Source: an uncultured Methanosarcinales archaeon
GTDB lineage: Archaea > Nanobdellota > Nanobdellia > Woesearchaeales > UBA11576
DNA: 64,000 nt
Assembly (NCBI GenBank): GCA_964406185.1
Contig: CAYOQS010000003.1
Span: 48,249-112,248, forward strand
Direction: 5' to 3'
A program made the position numbers and the translations under genes. The notes under the pieces were generated by a model. The model saw only the letters and a list, made by a program, of their open reading frames with translations. It made no database searches and had not been told where the DNA came from. Every line of letters begins with the position of its first letter. The first letter of the stretch is position 1. Below, piece by piece: positions 8,184-48,391 of this stretch.

Positions 8184-9068
8184 ATGAAAAGACGCGTCGT
8201 AGAGCAGGGTGGGCTGACCCTGATGATAAGCCTGCCAAGGAAATGGGCAAAAAAGCACGGCCTGTCCAAAGGGGACGAGCTGGAGCTCACAGAGAGAGGG
8301 AAAGAGCTAGTGCTGGCCACCTCAAAAGGGCTTGAAGAAGAGTCCAGGACAACCGTAGAGATAGACCCTGCGAAGTTCATGGGCAGGCTGATACACGCAC
8401 CATACAGGTTCGGATACAAAGAGCTCGAGATAAAATACCCAGACCCATCTGTCGTGCCAGAGATAGAACATTACCTGGACCAGACACTAGGATACGAGAT
8501 AGTCGAGCAAGGCACAAACCACATGAAAATAGAGATGGTCGCGAGCGAAGCAGAAGGGGACTTCGACAAGATGCTCCGCAGGATAATGCTGCTGGCACTT
8601 GACATGGTAAAGGACCTGACTACTGCAGCAGAAGAAGGCGACACTGAAAAGCTCAAAGAGATCGCAGGGCGGGAGAAAACAAGCAACAAGCTCACCAACT
8701 ACTGCGAAAGGATACTCAACAAGCACGGATACACAGACATCAAGAAGACAAGCTTCATGTACTGCACAGTCTGGGCCATGGAGCAGGTGGTGGACGATAT
8801 AAGCGACATGTGCGAGATACTGGCAGGATGCGGAAAAAAAGAAATGATGTGCGATATCCTCAACGCGTTCTCAGGATACATCCGCAAGTTCAACAGCGTA
8901 TTCTACAAGCACCCATACGAAGAACTCTGGAAATTCCGCAGCGAATACGACAAGTTCATGAAGAATATAGAAAAGACGAAAGCGAAAACACCTGAAGAAT
9001 ACAAGGTACTCGCGCTCATGACGAGCGCAACAGAAAAGATGAGGCATGTGACGATATCACTGCTATGA
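8184..9068 (+). CDS. AbrB/SpoVT-type swapped-hairpin DNA-binding domain fused to PhoU-like helical domain (archaeal 'phosphate uptake regulator'-type)
   Basis: ATG at 8184 preceded by GGAGAG. N-terminal LTLMISLPRKWAKKHGLSKGDELEL matches the AbrB-N fold. Confidence 0.75.
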   Translation: MKRRVVEQGGLTLMISLPRKWAKKHGLSKGDELELTERGKELVLATSKGLEEESRTTVEIDPAKFMGRLIHAPYRFGYKELEIKYPDPSVVPEIEHYLDQTLGYEIVEQGTNHMKIEMVASEAEGDFDKMLRRIMLLALDMVKDLTTAAEEGDTEKLKEIAGREKTSNKLTNYCERILNKHGYTDIKKTSFMYCTVWAMEQVVDDISDMCEILAGCGKKEMMCDILNAFSGYIRKFNSVFYKHPYEELWKFRSEYDKFMKNIEKTKAKTPEEYKVLALMTSATEKMRHVTISLL

Positions 9069-9069
9069 A

Positions 9070-11400
9070 TCAAGGCCAATGAAGCTCATTCTCGCCCATG
9101 ATGGCCGAATAACTATTCGGATTATCCTGCTGGCAGTACTCTGTAATATCTCTCAATCCTGAACTTAGCCTGGAACACCTCTCACGCATACGCTCTTCAG
9201 GAGTGCTGGAAATATAATCATCCAATTCTTCCTCAACAGCATCATCCGCCCTGTCAAGCCCGTCGATACGCATCCAGTTATCAGTCAGACCTCTCGCTTC
9301 GTTCACCGCAGACCAAGTGTGCAAATCAATATCATACAACGCCTGGGATATCCGGGCATACGGAACAGGAGGGTGATCCATGTGCGATGCTCTCGGGTGA
9401 TCAGCGGCAGATCCTCTCAAAAGATCCATATCTATATCAACACCAGACTCCCTTGCCGCGTCTATCACAGAACCAAGGTTAAGGCATGCAGCAGCAGCAG
9501 TCTCAGGATCGTGGAAAGTCTGGTAATACCTGCTGTAGATGAAAGTCATGTTGGTCCGCTCAAGACCTCCGCGAGTGCCTCCCAGCTCTGCGGTAAGTAC
9601 AGGCATCCACCGTTCGACCTCTGACTGCGCCTCAAGTTCATTGACCTTGTCATTAAGGTGCGAGAAACCATAAGCAGCAATACCTGACCCTATCGCGACC
9701 GCAAATGCCGCGGCAGGAATCCCATAACGCAACAAGCGTCTCTTGATCTTCTCTTTCTTCTGCACCTCATCGTGTCTTCCTATCAGCTCATCGTTCTTTC
9801 TGCGCATGTTGATGACATCATAAGGGCTGACCTCCTCATTGGTCTCAAAAGAAGGGTTGAAGCGCTCAGCGATTTCAGCCATATCACCCTCTTCGAGAGG
9901 AGTGTCGAAAAGGCTGTTCAGGTAATCCAGCTTCGGGTCTTCAAGACCCTCTATCTTACCATCCTTGACGAGCTCCTGGGCGAACAAGGTGTAGAAGTAA
10001 CGCCTGGATGACTCCATACGGTCAGCATCATGCCCTCTCTTCTTCTCAAGAGAGAGATACCTGCGGGCTATCCGCAGAAGCTGCTTCCTCTTGTTCATCC
10101 TGAAAGATGAGTCAAACTCCTCACGTGAAGGCGTATCTTTACCATCCTGCGTGAAAAGCTCTGTCACAGTATGATACGCATCATCCAGCAGAGCCTGCTC
10201 TGCAGGCGTGCCGTCCTCAAGCACGTGCGAGCCGCCCCTGTGATCATAGATACCGGACTGCGCCCAGCGCTTGAAAAGCAATGACTCAAGAGTCTCAAGC
10301 CGGGAACGCTCAAAATCGATATGGGTATACCTCCTGTCATCACCCTCACCAGTGACCATCACATTCCCAAGGTTCAGGTCCCAAGGGGTGAAGTACACCT
10401 GCTCAGGCGTCGAGTCGCCGTCAATGCCTATAAGATCAAGCACTGCAGACCTCTCATCACCCGCGTCATAGAACACTGCGAAAGCCTTCTCGTCGTGCAG
10501 AACACCCGAGGTCGTGATGACGCCCTTGTCTATAAGATGCTGCCTGAACTCAGGATCGCACTTTAAAAGGATATCCTCGAACACCTCACGCCTGTAATCC
10601 TTTGCCATGAAGACAGGCTTCCTGAAAACCCTGCCTTTGTTAGACAGGCGCCTGCCCTGCCTTGTCCTCATGAAATCCCTCGAACGGTAGCTCGTGACAA
10701 GGTCTATGCCCGTCACTTCAGAGAGGACCTGTACCCTGTCGTCTATAGTGATGGAGTCATCAGAGAATGCCTCCTGCAGGTCCTTCCCGTTCACGAACAC
10801 GTTATGCAGGACGTTGTTCCCGCTATGAAGCGGCCGGATAGGAGCAGCACGGCGCAACTTAGCGGCGATACCAGAAGACATTTCCACCTGCCCATCCCTG
10901 ATGAAATCAACAAGGGAACGGTAGAACTGCTGACCGCGAGTCGCGAGCTCCCAATCTTCAGCATCATCAAATACGCTGTGGAAAGTCCTCACCACAGTGC
11001 CGCCAGGGTAGAACCTCGCTGCCTCGATCAGCATGCCGTCATCATTATAGTTCTTGGCAGTGCTCTTATCGGTCTTTATCCTTGAGAAGCGGGGAGCCCC
11101 GCCGTTGAGTTCCTGTATCTCATTCACGACAACAGGATCAAGACCTTCATCAATCATCTGGTCCAGATACTTCAATATGTTCAGCCTGTCGTCCTCGCCC
11201 ACCACCTCGTTCAAAACGTCAAGCACAAGGTGCTGTGAGTGAGCCCTCTTCCCATCAGGAGTCTTTGAGCCGGTGTAGGCGTCCAGCTCTTCCTTGTGAA
11301 GCGTCTTGATATCATCGAAAGGCAGCTCGAAGATCTCATTCCAGCTGTAGTTCCCGGTACAGATATTTTCCAGATTCCCTGCGGCATCGTCAGAACTCAT
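9070..11400 (-). CDS. single-pass membrane protein with cytoplasmic atypical protein-kinase-like (APH/ELK-type) domain and ~200-aa extracytoplasmic C-terminal domain
   Basis: Brenner-type catalytic motif PWDLNLGN followed by IDFE, with an upstream VFMAK lysine strand. One TM helix GIPAAAFAVAIGSGIAAYGF. The start codon overlaps the stop of the upstream RHH ORF (ATGA). Confidence 0.6.
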   Translation of the reverse strand: MSSDDAAGNLENICTGNYSWNEIFELPFDDIKTLHKEELDAYTGSKTPDGKRAHSQHLVLDVLNEVVGEDDRLNILKYLDQMIDEGLDPVVVNEIQELNGGAPRFSRIKTDKSTAKNYNDDGMLIEAARFYPGGTVVRTFHSVFDDAEDWELATRGQQFYRSLVDFIRDGQVEMSSGIAAKLRRAAPIRPLHSGNNVLHNVFVNGKDLQEAFSDDSITIDDRVQVLSEVTGIDLVTSYRSRDFMRTRQGRRLSNKGRVFRKPVFMAKDYRREVFEDILLKCDPEFRQHLIDKGVITTSGVLHDEKAFAVFYDAGDERSAVLDLIGIDGDSTPEQVYFTPWDLNLGNVMVTGEGDDRRYTHIDFERSRLETLESLLFKRWAQSGIYDHRGGSHVLEDGTPAEQALLDDAYHTVTELFTQDGKDTPSREEFDSSFRMNKRKQLLRIARRYLSLEKKRGHDADRMESSRRYFYTLFAQELVKDGKIEGLEDPKLDYLNSLFDTPLEEGDMAEIAERFNPSFETNEEVSPYDVINMRRKNDELIGRHDEVQKKEKIKRRLLRYGIPAAAFAVAIGSGIAAYGFSHLNDKVNELEAQSEVERWMPVLTAELGGTRGGLERTNMTFIYSRYYQTFHDPETAAAACLNLGSVIDAARESGVDIDMDLLRGSAADHPRASHMDHPPVPYARISQALYDIDLHTWSAVNEARGLTDNWMRIDGLDRADDAVEEELDDYISSTPEERMRERCSRLSSGLRDITEYCQQDNPNSYSAIMGENELHWP

Positions 11401-11531
11401 CTTTCCCCAAGCACCTCCTTTACCGCGTACTCAAAGGCGTGGGACTTGTTGCGGAAACGGCCTTCTCGCATGGCTTCGCGTATCATCAGGATAGTGTCCT
11501 CGTCCACAGAAATACTTACCTTATGCTTCAT
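11397..11531 (-). CDS. small ribbon-helix-helix (CopG/Arc/MetJ-like) DNA-binding protein, unlisted in ORF track
   Basis: 44 aa, MKHKVSISVDEDTILMIREAMREGRFRNKSHAFEYAVKEVLGER, with a beta-strand then two helices as in RHH. Its TGA overlaps the ATG of the 776-aa kinase-like gene. Confidence 0.55.
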   Translation of the reverse strand: MKHKVSISVDEDTILMIREAMREGRFRNKSHAFEYAVKEVLGER

Positions 11532-11688
11532 CCTGAGTGGGAAGGAATACCACTCATATATAAAGGTTTCGTTTTGTTGTCTCTGTTAAGTGGTTACAGA
11601 TAGGAAGTTTTAAATACAGGTCCCTGATTTATGTATAAAAGCTACATAACATATGGTGTTTAGGCTGCTAATGTGTTGAGGGAACCAG
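11532..11688. promoter_or_regulatory. divergent promoter region between RHH-kinase and AbrB-kinase operons
   Basis: Contains catatataaagg, ttttaaat and tttatgtataaaagc TATA-like boxes. GAGGGAA SD precedes the ATG at 11689. Confidence 0.45.
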
Positions 11689-11838
11689 ATGCAGCAATTC
11701 GTGATAACAAAGAAAGTGGCAAAGCACGGCAGCCAGGCCATCATAGTAGTACCCCGAGTTCTGGAGAAACATCTCAAGCCAAAGACAGTAGTGAAACTGA
11801 CGATCGATGTCATAGAGCAGCCGGAGGGTGATGAGTGA
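11689..11838 (+). CDS. small AbrB/MazE-like swapped-hairpin DNA-binding protein, unlisted in ORF track
   Basis: 49 aa, MQQFVITKKVAKHGSQAIIVVPRVLEKHLKPKTVVKLTIDVIEQPEGDE. It resembles the N-termini of the two flanking AbrB-PhoU proteins. Its TGA overlaps the kinase ATG (gTGATGg). Confidence 0.55.
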   Translation: MQQFVITKKVAKHGSQAIIVVPRVLEKHLKPKTVVKLTIDVIEQPEGDE

Positions 11839-13604
11839 TGGGAGCCGCAGAAGACCTCGCACCAGAGAACCAAATTGACGAGATCGAACATATCGACAGG
11901 CAGCTCGGAGAAGGCAAGTACAAGAACATAAGGAAGTTCACAGAAGGGGGTACGCGAACACTATACAAAGCAGAATGGGGCCCTGCAGAAGAGACAGTCA
12001 TAATCAAGGCAGACAAAGACGATACGCAACTCACGTCGCCACGCGCGCAGAGACATGCAGAGAGAGGGTATATAACCAGCAACGAGATAAGCGTTCTCGC
12101 GCTCATCCGCAAGCTGGAGGGACCTGAAAGGTACCACATCCAGCGGATATACGACTTCAACGCAGACTGCACCATATCAGTCGAGCCAGAGTTCGAATCA
12201 CAGACACTCGAGGAGATGGTCGACAATGAAGGTCCACTGACATCCGGGGATTTCAGAACAGCATTCACACAACTCATGGAATTCAGCCAGTATCTGATCA
12301 ACGAGGCAGGATTGTTCCACAGGGACCTGAAACCCTCAAACATCCTCGTCGGAAAAGACAAGCAAGAAGAACTGGAGATAAGAGTGGTGGATTTCGCGAA
12401 CGGATGCAGGAAAGACAAGACAGAAGCAAAGATGATGCCTACCGCAGGAGGACATCTGGTCATGGATCCCCTTATAATCGGAAAGTTCAATGCTGCAGCG
12501 GAAGGAAAGTACGACGAGAAAAGCGAGATATACGCCATAGGCACAGACATGGCATTCGCACTGACAGGAGAATACCCTGTAGAGTACGAAGCAGACAAGG
12601 GATTCGGGATATGCAAATTCACAGGAGAGTCACTTCTCGATGAAGAAGGGAATCTCGACCCTGCCGCGCACGACAGAGCTATAGACGCATTCCTCGCAAA
12701 GGAACTTCCGAGACACGCTCGCAGATACAGGAAAATAATCAAGAACTGCCTCACGCTTGACGAGAAAAAAAGATACAAGTCGATAGACAAACTGGCAAGA
12801 GAGTTCGATAGAGCAAACACATCAAAAAAGCCATTCATCATGAGCATCGCGACAGGCCTCCTGATAGGCGCGGCAGCCGTGGGAGGTTTCGGACTTGCAT
12901 ACCACCAGAACATACAGGCTGATGAACACGCGCAGGAACTCAGACAGTTCACAAGAGATGAAGAGACACGGAGAAAATATGAGGACATGTTCAAATCAGC
13001 GTATTCATTCGTCGAACAGAGCATAATAGACGGCAAAGTAAAGAACGATCTCGTGTTTGAACACCCTTACTTCATGCTGTACGAACAAGAAGAGATAGTC
13101 GGTATCGCAAAAAGACACGACCTTGAACCAGGACTCATCGCACGAATCCTGCTGGTAAACAAGCTATACTCAAGAAGGTCAGGATCAGACCTGGGGCAGT
13201 CACCAGTATACCTATTCGATCCCATAGAGACAAGAAAAAACATGTATCGCGTAGAATCAATCTCCAGATGGGACTCAAGCAAAAGAGAACCTTCAAACAG
13301 CCCTGCAAAGATACTGGACGAAGGAGCCGAAAGGCTAGCAGGACTTATACGCGAGAATGACGGCGACATCGAGAAAGCACTGACCGGGTTCTACAGTCCG
13401 GTATACCCTCAAAAGGAGGGCGCCCACAGCAGATGGTGGCTACATGGGACATACACCGACGACATAGCCGAAGTTATAGACCAGGAGATAGAGATTATAG
13501 TCCATAATGTCATCAACGGACCGGGTGCAGGAATGGGCGGATACCACATAAATACGCTGGTAGGAGATTATATACAGAAAAGATATGCGCCGCTACAAAG
13601 ATGA
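11838..13604 (+). CDS. eukaryotic-like Ser/Thr protein kinase, single TM, ~240-aa extracytoplasmic C-terminal domain
   Basis: VIIKAD (beta3 Lys), HRDLKPSNILV catalytic loop, DFANG (DFG-like). TM helix PFIMSIATGLLIGAAAVGGFGLAY. Confidence 0.85.
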   Translation: MGAAEDLAPENQIDEIEHIDRQLGEGKYKNIRKFTEGGTRTLYKAEWGPAEETVIIKADKDDTQLTSPRAQRHAERGYITSNEISVLALIRKLEGPERYHIQRIYDFNADCTISVEPEFESQTLEEMVDNEGPLTSGDFRTAFTQLMEFSQYLINEAGLFHRDLKPSNILVGKDKQEELEIRVVDFANGCRKDKTEAKMMPTAGGHLVMDPLIIGKFNAAAEGKYDEKSEIYAIGTDMAFALTGEYPVEYEADKGFGICKFTGESLLDEEGNLDPAAHDRAIDAFLAKELPRHARRYRKIIKNCLTLDEKKRYKSIDKLAREFDRANTSKKPFIMSIATGLLIGAAAVGGFGLAYHQNIQADEHAQELRQFTRDEETRRKYEDMFKSAYSFVEQSIIDGKVKNDLVFEHPYFMLYEQEEIVGIAKRHDLEPGLIARILLVNKLYSRRSGSDLGQSPVYLFDPIETRKNMYRVESISRWDSSKREPSNSPAKILDEGAERLAGLIRENDGDIEKALTGFYSPVYPQKEGAHSRWWLHGTYTDDIAEVIDQEIEIIVHNVINGPGAGMGGYHINTLVGDYIQKRYAPLQR

Positions 13605-14489
13605 GCCCATCAACGGGCTTGTAGCGAGATAGAAATTCCTTACGGCAGACATCAGGTGGTATACGATCACCCTGTCGCTGCTCTTCTGGAGAAGCGCGTA
13701 ACCTTTCTCATGGATAATTTTCTTCTCTGCATCGTGGACTTGCTCCATGATGACAATATCCTTCTTCATATATGCCCGCTTGAGGTTCTCGAAGAGAGCC
13801 GCGCAATCCTTTGCAAAAGACTTCAGCGACCTGTCTATCCTAACACTGCCAGACCTGAAGCGCAGGAGGATGAAGTATATTTCGCGCTGAGCGTGGATCA
13901 CATGTGTCTGGTATGCCCAGAAAAGCTGCGGATTCTTAATGTCAACAAGCCGCTTCGAGACGATACGGAAGCAGAAATTATTGTACTGCTGGATCTTCGC
14001 TTCCACCTCCTCGATGTCTATCAATGGTTTCTTCTTATCAAAAATTTCCAGGAGAGCCTCAAAAAGCTCGGATATGTTGTAGAGCATCTTCTTGCTCAAT
14101 ACCTCGAACTGCTCAGGGGAAGGCTCTGTTATGCTCTCTACCACACAGGACCTCTTCGACCGCTTTATCACCTCAAAACCCAGAAGTCTTGTCTTTACCA
14201 CTTTGTTGAGTATACTGAACTGCTTCTCGGAATGGAACGAGACATCAATAGAATCATACCCTATCCTGTAAGCGTTCGTTATCATCGTACGGACAGCAGA
14301 CTCTGTAAGACTTGTTATATTAAGCGATGTTGCCCTCTTCTTTACCTTTGTCTCAGCAGATACCAGAAGACCTTCAGGAAGCTCACGCACATCCACCTCA
14401 TCGCCTGCATCGAGATTCTTCTCTGAAGCCCACTTCTTAGGCAATGTGATGGTGACAGAGTCCTTCTGCCCTATTATCTTACGTCTCAT
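13593..14489 (-). CDS. second AbrB-domain + PhoU-like regulator (paralog of 8184-9068)
   Basis: Likely start MRRKIIGQKDSVTITLPKKWASEKNLDAGDEVDV (ATG 14489), a parallel AbrB N-domain. The 3' end overlaps the kinase gene by 12 nt. Confidence 0.7.
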   Translation of the reverse strand: MRRKIIGQKDSVTITLPKKWASEKNLDAGDEVDVRELPEGLLVSAETKVKKRATSLNITSLTESAVRTMITNAYRIGYDSIDVSFHSEKQFSILNKVVKTRLLGFEVIKRSKRSCVVESITEPSPEQFEVLSKKMLYNISELFEALLEIFDKKKPLIDIEEVEAKIQQYNNFCFRIVSKRLVDIKNPQLFWAYQTHVIHAQREIYFILLRFRSGSVRIDRSLKSFAKDCAALFENLKRAYMKKDIVIMEQVHDAEKKIIHEKGYALLQKSSDRVIVYHLMSAVRNFYLATSPLMGSSL

Positions 14490-14676
14490 AAAGGCTATTA
14501 AAAGCCCCACATATTTAAGATTTTCTAAAAATATACGAAACCTACGAATTATATGGAAAACATATATATTTGGACATTTGTTGTCATGTGATGGTGTAAG
14601 GCGGCTTCTGAAAAAAGAGCGTGTGATACTGAACAGGCATATTGCGCCACAATAGCCTAAACAAAGGTGTCGGGAG

Positions 14677-20796: not shown

Positions 20797-20844
20797 GCAA
20801 TAACCTCTTTTCAAAAGAGAATATAAGAGAATGATATAAAAAGA

Positions 20845-22026
20845 TTACTTCTTCTTGGACTTAGAAGACTTCTTCCCGGCCTTCCCCTTATTCTTTTTCG
20901 AGACCTCTTTCTTCTGCTTCTCAGCCAAAGCCTTGGCCTCAGCCAACGACATGCTCTTACCAGAATCAAGCCCGGAAGACTTCTCAGGAGATTTAGCTGA
21001 AGGTTCCGCAGAAGTTTTAGAATGCCTTTTGTACTTCGCAAGCACCCTCTCGATACGGCCATGATGCCAGCCAACCTCAAGAAGACGCTCCTTGATCTCA
21101 TCCACAGACTTGCCGCGCTTGATACTCTCCCTGATGTAGCTGTCCAGCTCCTTATCCACACTGTAGCCGAGCCGCTTCCTGCCGAAAACCAGGTAAAGCA
21201 CGACGGCAATCACCACCAAGGCCAACAGTATCAATATGCCCAAAAGCCGGGACTCCTCATCAGGCTCCACACCAGTCACGTCAGGGCCAGTAGTGGCAGG
21301 GACTGTTGAAGGAACCTGCTCAGGTCCTGGCTGCTGCTTCTCAAGCTGAACAGGAGTCACACCAGTCTCAAGAGCCACGTCAGAAGGCTCCTCATCAATC
21401 TCTTCCTCAGGCACATCTTCCTCAAGAGGAGCTTCCTCGCTGACCTCTTCCACCTCCTCTGCAACCTCAGCATAAGCATCATAACCCTGCATCTTACCTA
21501 TGAACAGATGATGCACGCCACCGTCATCAGCAGCAGTGAAATACACAAAATCCTCATCATCACTCACCACATCAGTCGGAAGCGCCTCCCACTCCTCAAG
21601 AACACGGTCATAAGCATGGAGTGCCACAGCATTGCGGGGCACGCCCTTATCCTCAAGCCAGGACTTCTCAACCCTGAAATCATAAAGGAACTTCTTGGTA
21701 TCATGAGGCACAAAACCCGAATACTTGATCTCATTGAACTCATAAGAATCATTCTCAGGCACATCAGGAAGGAAATCAGGAATGCTCCTCAGATTATACA
21801 CGGTAAGGCCTGCATTCTTCGCATCACGCTCGATAGTGAAAGTGATCCTGGTCAAGGCGATCTCTTCATTATCTATCTCAAATACATAAGGAGTGTCAGC
21901 CAGGACCTTCTCAAAGATAAGACCGTCCTGCGGATTCCACGCAGGATTATAGAAAGTAACACCGTAAGCAGCCGCCAACGGCAGCAGGAACAGTAATGCA
22001 CACAAAAATGCCAGGATACGTCTCAT
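20845..22026 (-). CDS. type-I membrane protein: signal peptide, ~190-aa extracellular domain, acidic linker, TM, Lys-rich cytoplasmic tail
   Basis: MRRILAFLCALLFLLPLAAAYG signal. TM LLGILILLALVVIAVVLYLVF. Tail rich in K. Confidence 0.6.
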   Translation of the reverse strand: MRRILAFLCALLFLLPLAAAYGVTFYNPAWNPQDGLIFEKVLADTPYVFEIDNEEIALTRITFTIERDAKNAGLTVYNLRSIPDFLPDVPENDSYEFNEIKYSGFVPHDTKKFLYDFRVEKSWLEDKGVPRNAVALHAYDRVLEEWEALPTDVVSDDEDFVYFTAADDGGVHHLFIGKMQGYDAYAEVAEEVEEVSEEAPLEEDVPEEEIDEEPSDVALETGVTPVQLEKQQPGPEQVPSTVPATTGPDVTGVEPDEESRLLGILILLALVVIAVVLYLVFGRKRLGYSVDKELDSYIRESIKRGKSVDEIKERLLEVGWHHGRIERVLAKYKRHSKTSAEPSAKSPEKSSGLDSGKSMSLAEAKALAEKQKKEVSKKNKGKAGKKSSKSKKK

Positions 22027-47188: not shown

Positions 47189-48391
47189 ATGGATAAAATA
47201 TGTTCTGATGCTATGAAACATATAATCTCAAAAATAAAAAAAAGCCTCAAGAAAGCTTCTAAAGACGAATTATTAACTCCGCGCAATCTAATAATACTTC
47301 TATTGATAACGCTGCTCAATTCTTTTATGATACATCTTTATCTCAATCCTCTTTTTGTCATATTATTCCTGTTTGGAATTGTTTTTCTTACAGGATTGTA
47401 TTTATTCATCAAAATACCTGATAAGCATAAGAAAACCATATTTATCTCTTTGACAATCTCATTTTTAGCATATTATCTCATCATCATGACAGTATTCGCT
47501 CCTGCATTCACAGAACGCATGGATAGGGATGAACTGCTAACAGCCACTTCAACCATGATTCTTTCTGGAAAGTCACCATATGAAGCTCGCTGGGTTGTTG
47601 GCGAATATGTTGCGATAAACCGCGTCAATGTCCTTCCTTTCTCATTGATTTATTCCATACCATTCTATCTTTTTGGAAATGTCGCTTTTCAGGATTTAAT
47701 AGCCTATCTATTTATTGTGTATATCATATACATCAGATATACAGGGAAAACAATTTTTAGGAATAGCTTTTCGTTATACCTTCTCGTACTTTTTTCAGTC
47801 TCCCCCATTACCTGCTTTGAATTCATGGGACTCAGCGATCTCCTTACAGGTATCGCCTTATTCCTTGGGGCAGTACATTTTGCGACAAAAAAGAAGATAA
47901 TCCCTAGCACCATCTTTCTTTCATTATCTATGCTCACAAGATTGGTTCTATGGCCCCCTGCAGGACTGTTAGCGGGTTACTATTACAGAAGAGTAAGGAC
48001 AAAAAAATTTTTGACGATAGGCATTACAATTACAATAATAATAACTGCATTTATGATACCATTCTACTTATGGGATGGTGAAGGCTTCCTAAACAACACC
48101 CTAGGATCCAACCAAGGCAAATTAAACATAGAAGGTTCACAACTATTCAGATTAATACCTATAAAAGATATAAGCTTAATTTTTCCAGGAATATTGCTTC
48201 TTTATTCAATTATTGCGGGTTATTTTTCAAGGAACTTTCATGATCTCTCTCTTCATTTCGGAATTTTGATGATAATCTTATTTTCAACAATGCTGATGAT
48301 TGCGTTAGATTATTCACATCTCACATGGATGGCAGTACCTCTTTATTTTTCATTCAAAAGCAGAAAAATAAAAAATAATAAAATAAAATGA
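47189..48391 (+). CDS. polytopic membrane protein (Wzy-like polymerase / GT-C candidate), low-GC gene
   Basis: 400 aa, 10 or more TM helices, markedly AT-rich relative to its neighbours. Confidence 0.55.
   Translation: MDKICSDAMKHIISKIKKSLKKASKDELLTPRNLIILLLITLLNSFMIHLYLNPLFVILFLFGIVFLTGLYLFIKIPDKHKKTIFISLTISFLAYYLIIMTVFAPAFTERMDRDELLTATSTMILSGKSPYEARWVVGEYVAINRVNVLPFSLIYSIPFYLFGNVAFQDLIAYLFIVYIIYIRYTGKTIFRNSFSLYLLVLFSVSPITCFEFMGLSDLLTGIALFLGAVHFATKKKIIPSTIFLSLSMLTRLVLWPPAGLLAGYYYRRVRTKKFLTIGITITIIITAFMIPFYLWDGEGFLNNTLGSNQGKLNIEGSQLFRLIPIKDISLIFPGILLLYSIIAGYFSRNFHDLSLHFGILMIILFSTMLMIALDYSHLTWMAVPLYFSFKSRKIKNNKIK

Follow-up and report, generated by a model that had tools for sequence, protein, structure and literature searches.

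Two small conserved genes encoding ribbon-helix-helix and putative AbrB-like proteins overlap kinase and kinase-like genes in a cassette that recurs in DPANN archaea

The window analysed here is a stretch of 64,000 nucleotides (nt) from an assembly titled uncultured Methanosarcinales archaeon (GenBank GCA_964406185.1, contig CAYOQS010000003.1, positions 48,249 to 112,248 of the forward strand), and the subject of this work is a pair of divergent mini-genes within it. The first one (11397..11531, minus strand) opens a leftward operon and encodes a 44-residue protein, MKHKVSISVDEDTILMIREAMREGRFRNKSHAFEYAVKEVLGER, assigned to the ribbon-helix-helix (RHH) fold. The second (11689..11838, plus strand) opens a rightward operon and encodes a 49-residue protein of AbrB-like or cradle-loop-barrel-like type, MQQFVITKKVAKHGSQAIIVVPRVLEKHLKPKTVVKLTIDVIEQPEGDE, which is basic with an acidic tail. 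The leftward operon continues with the gene of a 776-residue protein (9070..11400, minus strand), probably an atypical kinase-like membrane protein by its open reading frame (ORF), motifs and homologues, and the rightward operon with the gene of a 588-residue membrane Ser/Thr kinase of the Hanks type (11838..13604, plus strand), classified by its Pkinase match and motifs. Two further genes encode AbrB-PhoU proteins: the left one (8184..9068, plus strand; MazE_antitoxin E-value 2.3e-8, PhoU 0.003) is convergent with the 776-residue gene and the right one (13593..14489, minus strand; MazE_antitoxin E-value 6e-6) with the kinase gene. Read from left to right, the gene order is AbrB-PhoU (plus), 776-residue protein and RHH (both minus), AbrB-like protein and kinase (both plus) and AbrB-PhoU (minus), that is, two mirror-image cassettes. 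The 3' ends of the kinase gene and the right AbrB-PhoU gene overlap by 12 nt (13593-13604), and 1 nt lies between those of the 776-residue gene and the left AbrB-PhoU gene (9068-9070). No extra copies of either mini-gene, the kinase gene or the AbrB-PhoU genes were identified in the 64-kb window.

The initial annotation had proposed both mini-ORFs together with their overlaps and a ribosome-binding site, and all of these were found where it had placed them. The RHH and 776-residue ORFs share 4 nt, ATGA (11397-11400). The TGA of the AbrB-like ORF (11836-11838) and the ATG of the kinase (11838) share 1 nt in TGATG, the alternative kinase start being the GTG at 11835. A Shine-Dalgarno-like GAGGGAA (11678-11684, plus strand), read off the sequence, precedes the AbrB-like ATG by 4 nt. 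Both mini-genes were missing from the first-stage ORF track because of its 60-residue cut-off. Their description as unannotated holds for the RHH gene, which has no record in the protein collection and whose place on a 6.2-kb Logan contig is an uncalled gap, and fails for the AbrB-like gene, whose 49-residue product is already recorded for this exact sequence on that contig (P0037; NCBI, Logan). Homologues of the RHH protein are called as genes in other assemblies, where several were named Arc/MetJ-type RHH regulators by JGI.

An ORF of 44 to 49 residues is in itself unremarkable, as 69 ORFs of at least 25 residues overlap positions 9000-14500, and it is conservation, not mere existence, that places these two above chance level. 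The RHH protein has 36 protein-cluster homologues with 59-90% identity and an invariant FRNKSHAFE motif; the AbrB-like protein has 158, with T7, K8, A11, K12, H13, G14, Q16 and P22 invariant. Degenerate-pattern scans confirmed by tblastn gave 63 RHH loci in metagenomes and 297 AbrB-like loci in species-representative genomes, the AbrB-like loci analysed below being the 80 closest relatives among the latter. The ungapped codon alignments (80 AbrB-like and 57 RHH) have saturated synonymous sites, with a mean proportion of synonymous differences (pS) of 0.82 against a nonsynonymous proportion (pN) of 0.18 for the AbrB-like genes and 0.26 for the RHH genes. Identity at the three codon positions is 0.74/0.89/0.37 in the AbrB-like family and 0.68/0.80/0.41 in the RHH family. 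Start and stop codons are conserved and the frame is open throughout the 57-80 loci, the remaining forward frames being closed by stops in nearly all of them. Both mini-ORFs are, in agreement with the initial annotation, genuine protein-coding genes, and they are conserved and under purifying selection; a reading frame that varied across homologous loci, which that annotation had named as the sign of a non-coding stretch, was looked for and the frame was found to be conserved.

By the titles of their records, the carriers belong to the DPANN archaea (Woesearchaeota, Pacearchaeota, Nanoarchaeota and Nanoarchaeia). Many of these records (L002, L003, L005-L008, L018 and others) bear the title uncultured Methanosarcinales archaeon; since the genomes nearest to them go by the names Woesearchaeota or Nanoarchaeota, the taxonomy given for those assemblies does not look reliable.

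Coupling of the mini-genes to large downstream genes, also claimed initially, was confirmed in the related loci. In 68 of 80 AbrB-like loci and 48 of 59 RHH loci, the next ORF on the strand of the mini-gene overlaps its stop codon or directly adjoins it, and all the downstream ORFs of at least 400 residues (42 AbrB-like, 33 RHH) do so, the commonest form of overlap being the four-base NTGA. Pfam Pkinase matches 32 of 72 and 24 of 49 downstream proteins in the two sets, and an iterative hidden Markov model (HMM) search identified 59 of 119 downstream partners as kinases. A hydrophobic segment at about residues 300-430 is present in 31 of these 59; two more have one elsewhere, at 497 and 752, which brings the kinases with at least one segment to 33. 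Another 15 proteins, most of them 650-830 residues long and two of them already among the 59 kinases, form a cluster that resembles the 776-residue protein: some members match its family and some carry APH-like HxDLxxxN motifs. The usual partner of a mini-gene in DPANN archaea is a gene for a membrane Ser/Thr kinase or kinase-like protein of 500-800 residues, and the kinase link is dominant, not universal. Nearest-neighbour full-length kinases differ in the type of their mini-gene in 20 of 70 cases (for example L069 and L118, 40% identical over 543 residues). Because related kinases carry either type, the RHH and AbrB-like folds look functionally equivalent and exchangeable.

The 588-residue protein of the window matches Pkinase (PF00069) with an E-value of 2.3e-15 and 57.1 bits, the gathering score being 31.7. 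It has the profile and the Lys, HRD...N and DFG-type motifs of a Hanks-type kinase, as VIIKADK (54-60), HRDLKPSN (161-168) and DFA (185-187), followed by a hydrophobic segment (333-355). Its 233-residue C-terminal domain has no Pfam match, and neither have the C-terminal domain of the 776-residue protein and a 359-residue neighbour.

As a whole the 776-residue protein has no Pfam match either and only four close homologues, and 79 relatives were obtained when 1.8 billion representative proteins were searched with a profile. D341, N346 and D362 (WDLNLGNVMV...IDFERS) are invariant in the family, and the window protein has a hydrophobic segment at 560-579. Its C-terminal part (about 545-730 of the profile) recurs in proteins of about 500 residues. 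Of ten such proteins tested, nine match Pkinase in their N-terminal part with a score above the gathering threshold; the tenth, P0194, has sub-threshold APH/Pkinase matches only. Matches at the catalytic-loop region were identified in the distant full-length homologue P0178 (APH, 26.3 bits, cut-off 23.2) and, weakly, in P0168 and P0193 (APH/Choline_kinase). An hhalign comparison of the family with kinases aligned the catalytic loops with a probability of only 5%, and the family HMM gave no match to the kinase of the window; for these reasons a close paralogy of the two large proteins was rejected. From its sequence, we take the 776-residue protein to be a membrane protein of atypical, kinase-like type.

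The third gene of the cassette, convergent AbrB-PhoU, was identified behind the large partner in 28 of 36 and 21 of 24 loci with enough sequence, and behind none of the 29 partners shorter than 400 residues (49 of 60 versus 0 of 29). Its end lies between -80 and +510 nt from the stop of the large partner, mostly within about 30 nt. The ORF list over-extends the 5' ends of both window copies (8124 versus 8184 and 14684 versus 14489): homologues align only from residue 21 of the left protein and residue 66 of the right one, and the latter is called with 298 residues on Logan contig L001. The cassette of mini-regulator, kinase and AbrB-PhoU recurs in DPANN archaea. It seems to be so far undescribed, no description of this gene association (DPANN, kinase, RHH, AbrB, PhoU) having been found in the searchable literature, the coverage of which is incomplete. 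The combination of a mini-regulator and its operator with a membrane kinase and a convergent AbrB-PhoU gene is the main point, missed when the mini-genes were initially described.

The two cassettes of the window are independent of each other. Homologues of the 776-residue protein in L145-L148 also have the convergent AbrB-PhoU gene, and beside their cassette the AbrB-like cassette is replaced by a Memo gene (in L148 by a metallophosphoesterase gene). Conversely, an RHH gene lies within 6 kb in seven of 80 AbrB-like loci; in L003 and L075 it is divergent and no more than about 150 nt away, which is also the arrangement of the window. The L148 gene (2061-3068, minus strand), divergent from a 776-residue homologue lacking an RHH gene, encodes an N-terminal RHH domain (RHH_1 E-value 0.0014, 18.9 bits, just under the cut-off) fused to a calcineurin-like metallophosphoesterase (E-value 1.4e-14). 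With a kinase-like gene as its neighbour, this fusion of an RHH domain and a possible phosphatase hints that RHH modules may be tied to phospho-signalling more widely.

Upstream regions aligned by start codon contain a conserved B-recognition element and TATA box (BRE/TATA), cGAAAGcTTTATAAA, followed by a palindrome specific to each family. Most RHH loci have this sequence at an unchanged position, and the equivalent gaaagcTTTATAAA is found in most AbrB-like loci. The BRE/TATA elements of the window were read off the sequence, that of the RHH operon at 11557..11571 (minus strand, CGAAACCTTTATATA) and that of the AbrB-like operon at 11603..11616 (plus strand, GGAAGTTTTAAATA). The palindromes come from locus comparison. 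The one named palR (GAGTGGGAAGGAATACCACTC, 11535..11555), putative operator of the RHH protein, is located directly after the minus-strand TTTATATA (11557-11564) and 4 nt ahead of the RHH ATG. The one named palA, putative operator of the AbrB-like protein, is the inverted repeat TTATGTA-N7-TACATAA (11629..11649, core ATGTATAAAAGCTACAT), with its centre about 27 bp after TTTTAAATA (11608-11616). The RHH start codon is about 26 nt downstream of its BRE/TATA, and with this spacing the mRNA of the RHH operon looks leaderless or nearly so. The mRNA of the AbrB-like operon seems to have a leader some 40-50 nt long, in which the GAGGGAA mentioned above is found; many related loci have a G-rich GGGG/GAGGTG at that place and others look leaderless. 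A repeat finder reported no strong repeat in the window; palR was not among its results and palA came up only as an imperfect palindrome of 14 nt (I2), so that the operators are evident only when many loci are compared. A sigma-70 and terminator scan of the window, using a consensus not applicable to archaea, gave nothing.

Both palindromes were counted as patterns with up to two mismatches within 120 nt upstream of the mini-genes. The palA pattern (ATGTATA-N3-TATACAT) was identified ahead of 45 of 80 AbrB-like genes versus one of 60 RHH genes, with a background of 16 sites in 761 kb. The palR pattern (AGTRGTA-N3-9-TACYACT) was identified ahead of 23 of 60 RHH genes versus three of 80 AbrB-like genes, with a background of 22 sites in 339 kb; these backgrounds amount to about 0.003-0.008 sites per 120 bp. 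Most of the background palA sites are at the promoter of a same-strand gene preceding the AbrB-like gene. Where the AbrB-like gene is not the first of its operon, palA was observed 300-1400 nt upstream of it, at the promoter of an unrelated gene that comes earlier (L021, L042, L050, L052, L063 with a PALP enzyme, L002 and L072). One palA (L026:2764-2801) stands directly ahead of a kinase gene without a mini-gene, the AbrB-like gene being 3 kb away, an arrangement that suggests regulation in trans. The other palindrome, palR, is degenerate or absent in the loci whose 776-residue homologue lacks an RHH gene (L146-L148). The strongest indirect evidence for the proposed autorepression is this association of each type of operator with one family of mini-genes.

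Other palindromic sites were noticed along with these. A second palA-like site with two mismatches (47717-47733, GTGTATATCATATACAT) lies inside the ORF 47189..48391 (plus strand) and is probably due to chance. Of 109 strict BRE/TATA sites (L002-L148), 36 have the short palindromic element YACT-N3-6-AGTR in the 35 nt upstream, random 37-nt windows containing it in 0.7% of cases. Since 26 of the 36 are away from mini-gene promoters, the element seems to belong to promoter-upstream regions of these DPANN genomes in general. It has half-sites similar to those of palR, arranged the opposite way. The window has a weak counterpart at about 11581-11593 (ctctgttaagtgg), upstream of the BRE of the RHH operon, and no exact match to the pattern CACT-N3-6-AGTRG.

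The RHH fold of the 44-residue protein, as proposed initially, is well supported by profiles and by the predicted structure. The window protein scores 14.0 bits (E-value 0.05) with the Pfam model RHH_1 (PF01402), whose cut-off is 20.5, and 18 of 37 family members are matched, with a best E-value of 7.4e-5. The AlphaFold2 (AF2) model has a mean predicted local distance difference test (pLDDT) score of 92.6 and the strand, helix, turn and helix of the RHH topology, with residues 1-10 extended and helices at 11-22 and 29-41. K2, K4, S6 and S8 alternate in the strand with V5, I7 and V9, and the turn G24...N28-K29-S30 is conserved; from the alternating pattern we infer that K2, K4, S6 and S8 face the DNA. 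The top three matches of the model in the PDB are the RHH domains of ParD (7b22, 7r5a and 7ycw), with template-modelling (TM) scores of 0.79-0.84 and root-mean-square deviations (rmsd) of 1.5-2.2 A, their Foldseek E-values of 1.5-7.6 not being significant at the length of this protein. A profile-sequence search of the PDB with the family profile gave nothing relevant. The closest curated NCBIfam model is that of haloarchaeal CdrS (NF058555), which weakly matches nine of 37 family members (best E-value 0.004) and the window protein with 14.1 bits; with an equivalog cut-off of 100, orthology to CdrS was rejected. A weak tblastn match to the N-terminus of the RHH protein (29% over 24 residues, E-value 0.3) was observed at 21109-21180 (minus strand), inside the ORF 20811..21209 (minus strand), and is probably noise.

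The label AbrB-like for the 49-residue protein stands only in part: weak profile and structure matches fall in the expected register, and membership in a Pfam or NCBIfam family was not obtained. The window protein has no match in either collection, although about 300 species-level genomes carry a member of its family. PF04014 (MazE_antitoxin/SpoVT-AbrB) matches one of 49 members with an E-value of 0.019 and the NCBIfam MazE model one of 49 at 0.062, with nothing consistent, and the PDB profile search gave nothing relevant; assignment by profile to the AbrB/SpoVT/MazE family (PF04014; TIGR01439) was accordingly rejected. The hhalign comparison with eight known AbrB domains gave a weak match (P 0.0013, probability 18%) with Pro22 on the invariant Pro, and that with 87 N-terminal domains of AbrB-PhoU proteins an equally placed weak one (P 0.023, probability 2%). 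The register common to both sets TKKVAKHGSQAIIVVPR over strand-turn-strand-Pro and LKPKT at the position of the GD-box. The AF2 monomer model (pLDDT 79) consists of one hairpin and a short helix, and its best PDB neighbours are dimeric RIFT-fold designs of 40-44 residues (8jvq and 8jvr; TM 0.52-0.55, E-value 4.6, not significant). With AbrB and other cradle-loop barrels the protein shares the pattern strand-turn-strand-Pro-helix, a GD-box-like LKP(G/K)T and a strand; unlike the swapped-hairpin barrel of AbrB, with its two hairpins, it appears three-stranded, and all the matches are below significance. From this pattern and the model, it is probably a cradle-loop-type barrel, either a swapped-hairpin or a RIFT-like dimer. 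A more doubtful reading would make it a natural homodimeric DNA-binding barrel of RIFT or swapped-hairpin type with only about 45 residues.

These elements can be put together as follows. The window would contain two divergent bicistronic operons, the first cistrons of which encode proteins of about 5 kDa that may consist of a DNA-binding core alone. Each of these, presumably as a dimer or higher oligomer, would bind its own palindrome, palR at 11535-11555 or palA at 11629-11649, and binding at the core promoter would impede formation of the transcription complex, with autorepression of the operon as the result. The second cistron would provide a single-pass membrane Ser/Thr kinase (588 residues) or an atypical kinase-like protein (776 residues), and the start/stop overlap suggests that both cistrons are translated jointly; the mini-protein would in this way set the level of the co-translated membrane kinase. 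The convergent AbrB-PhoU protein, a predicted DNA-binding protein, would complete each cassette. The balance of probability leans modestly towards the mini-proteins being operon-embedded, sequence-specific autorepressors that act at the core promoter. A further step has its precedent in Sulfolobales, where the DNA binding of aCcr2 is impaired on phosphorylation by a Hanks-type kinase (PMC13199686): the receptor-like kinase, with a C-terminal domain presumably extracytoplasmic, might phosphorylate the mini-protein or AbrB-PhoU and release repression, a proposal made by analogy and less likely than not. Somewhat more doubtful still is a complete and widespread one-step signalling cassette of DPANN archaea, in which the kinase would phosphorylate the mini-protein, of RHH or minimal cradle-loop-barrel fold, off its operator, with AbrB-PhoU as second partner, in replacement of classical two-component systems.

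Several observations weigh against this reading. About one third of the mini-genes precede small non-kinase genes of many unrelated families, and about 44% of AbrB-like and 62% of RHH loci lack a strict match to the palindrome, which another factor could bind. The loci analysed are the closest relatives, with some near-duplicates (L120/L121, L108/L110 and L095/L106), and the AbrB-like fold itself is plausible and unproven. The first of these points also favours the alternative that the mini-proteins are plain local transcription factors limited to autoregulation, with no action of the kinase on them and with AbrB-PhoU unrelated. Archaea have many small regulators of the RHH and AbrB types, some operons have the AbrB-like gene in second place, and mini-genes can be lost upstream of a kinase-like gene. 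Yet kinases or kinase-like proteins make up essentially every large partner and over half of the total, which by informal comparison is far above any plausible genomic frequency of kinases; the convergent AbrB-PhoU gene accompanies large partners exclusively; and two unrelated folds converge on one type of partner. This alternative, to which we give a small though appreciable likelihood, differs from autorepression by kinase-linked regulators only in denying the functional link to the kinase, a link that we ourselves infer.

A toxin-antitoxin-like module is improbable. On this view the mini-protein would serve as autorepressor and type II antitoxin, with the kinase as a growth-arresting toxin, as in HipBA or kinase-based abortive infection. 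Such a layout has the small gene first with a 4-nt overlap, the classic antitoxin DNA-binding folds RHH and AbrB, ParD antitoxins as the closest structures to the RHH protein, palindromic operators at the promoter, and RHH and AbrB-like genes swapped between related partners as toxin-antitoxin systems do; the kinase also matches the defence kinases PD-T4-6 and PglW in a generic way. However, the mini-proteins, mostly of 42-50 residues, end a few residues past the last helix or strand and have no toxin-neutralising C-terminal extension, and the partners are membrane-anchored, have large C-terminal domains and belong to no known toxin family. Conservation is the reverse of the usual toxin-antitoxin co-evolution, with 60-90% identity among mini-proteins and often less than 35% among partners. 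Pairing is not obligatory, as 776-residue homologues keep D...N...D without a mini-gene and the L026 kinase has palA and no adjacent one. PADLOC gave no match for the mini-proteins or the 776-residue protein, no relatives were found in the viral contigs searched, and synteny with housekeeping-type neighbours is conserved. Membership among type II antitoxins was rejected on the missing extension, the facultative pairing and the partner type.

That the ORFs are spurious, the conserved stretch being a non-coding leader or promoter of the kinase genes, has next to no likelihood: chance short ORFs are frequent and the RHH ORF has no called-gene record for this sequence, but the notion is refuted by saturated third codon positions beside conserved first and second ones and by the closed other frames, and is opposed by confident fold models of both proteins and by homologues called as genes across many assemblies.

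By themselves, both ORFs encode ordinary small regulators that a length cut-off had hidden, and the RHH gene is a gap in the annotation of this sequence; it is their context that makes them useful. A defined protein, DNA site and kinase form a tractable unit in DPANN archaea, which are hard to grow and whose signalling is almost unknown. The cassette is of a known kind, a pairing of kinase and transcription factor, in a toxin-antitoxin-like operon layout that would be put to regulatory use. Control of the mini-proteins by the kinases, if true, would parallel the aCcr2-aCcrK switch, described recently, and would point to kinase-controlled mini-repressors as a general theme in archaea.

Among the closest known systems are the RHH repressors aCcr1, aCcr2 and aCcr3 of Sulfolobales and the kinase aCcrK (ePK2) (PMC9976878, PMC13199686). 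Like the RHH mini-protein, a putative repressor, these repressors are very small archaeal RHH proteins, and the impaired DNA binding of aCcr2 after phosphorylation by a Hanks-type kinase corresponds to the release step considered above, the likeness being one of description only. The aCcr proteins differ in that their targets are cell-division genes and that they are not reported to share an operon with the kinase; here the regulator gene overlaps that of a kinase with a predicted membrane segment, and a protein of non-RHH fold can substitute for it.

Haloarchaeal CdrS is a small RHH regulator encoded just upstream of ftsZ2 and co-transcribed with it. It is similar to the RHH mini-protein in being a small RHH protein upstream of a larger co-transcribed gene, and it provides the nearest curated NCBIfam model; it differs in the downstream gene, which is kinase-like here and not ftsZ2, and in the score of 14 bits against 100.

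Type II antitoxins (ParD/CopG with RHH and MazE/VapB with AbrB domains) share with the mini-proteins the fold (ParD2, TM 0.81, rmsd 1.6 A), the gene order with its 4-nt overlap, the palindromic operator at their own promoter and the interchangeability of RHH and AbrB types. The mini-proteins lack the toxin-binding tail and are more conserved than their partners, which are receptor-like membrane kinases and also occur where there is no mini-gene.

The PknH-EmbR pair of Mycobacterium tuberculosis consists of a membrane Ser/Thr kinase encoded beside its transcription-factor substrate. In both cases a gene for a DNA-binding regulator adjoins that of a Hanks-type kinase which crosses the membrane once and has a domain outside the cytoplasm, as predicted here. 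EmbR is large and multidomain, with an FHA domain that docks on the phosphorylated kinase, whereas the mini-proteins have no docking domain and their genes appear translationally coupled to that of the kinase.

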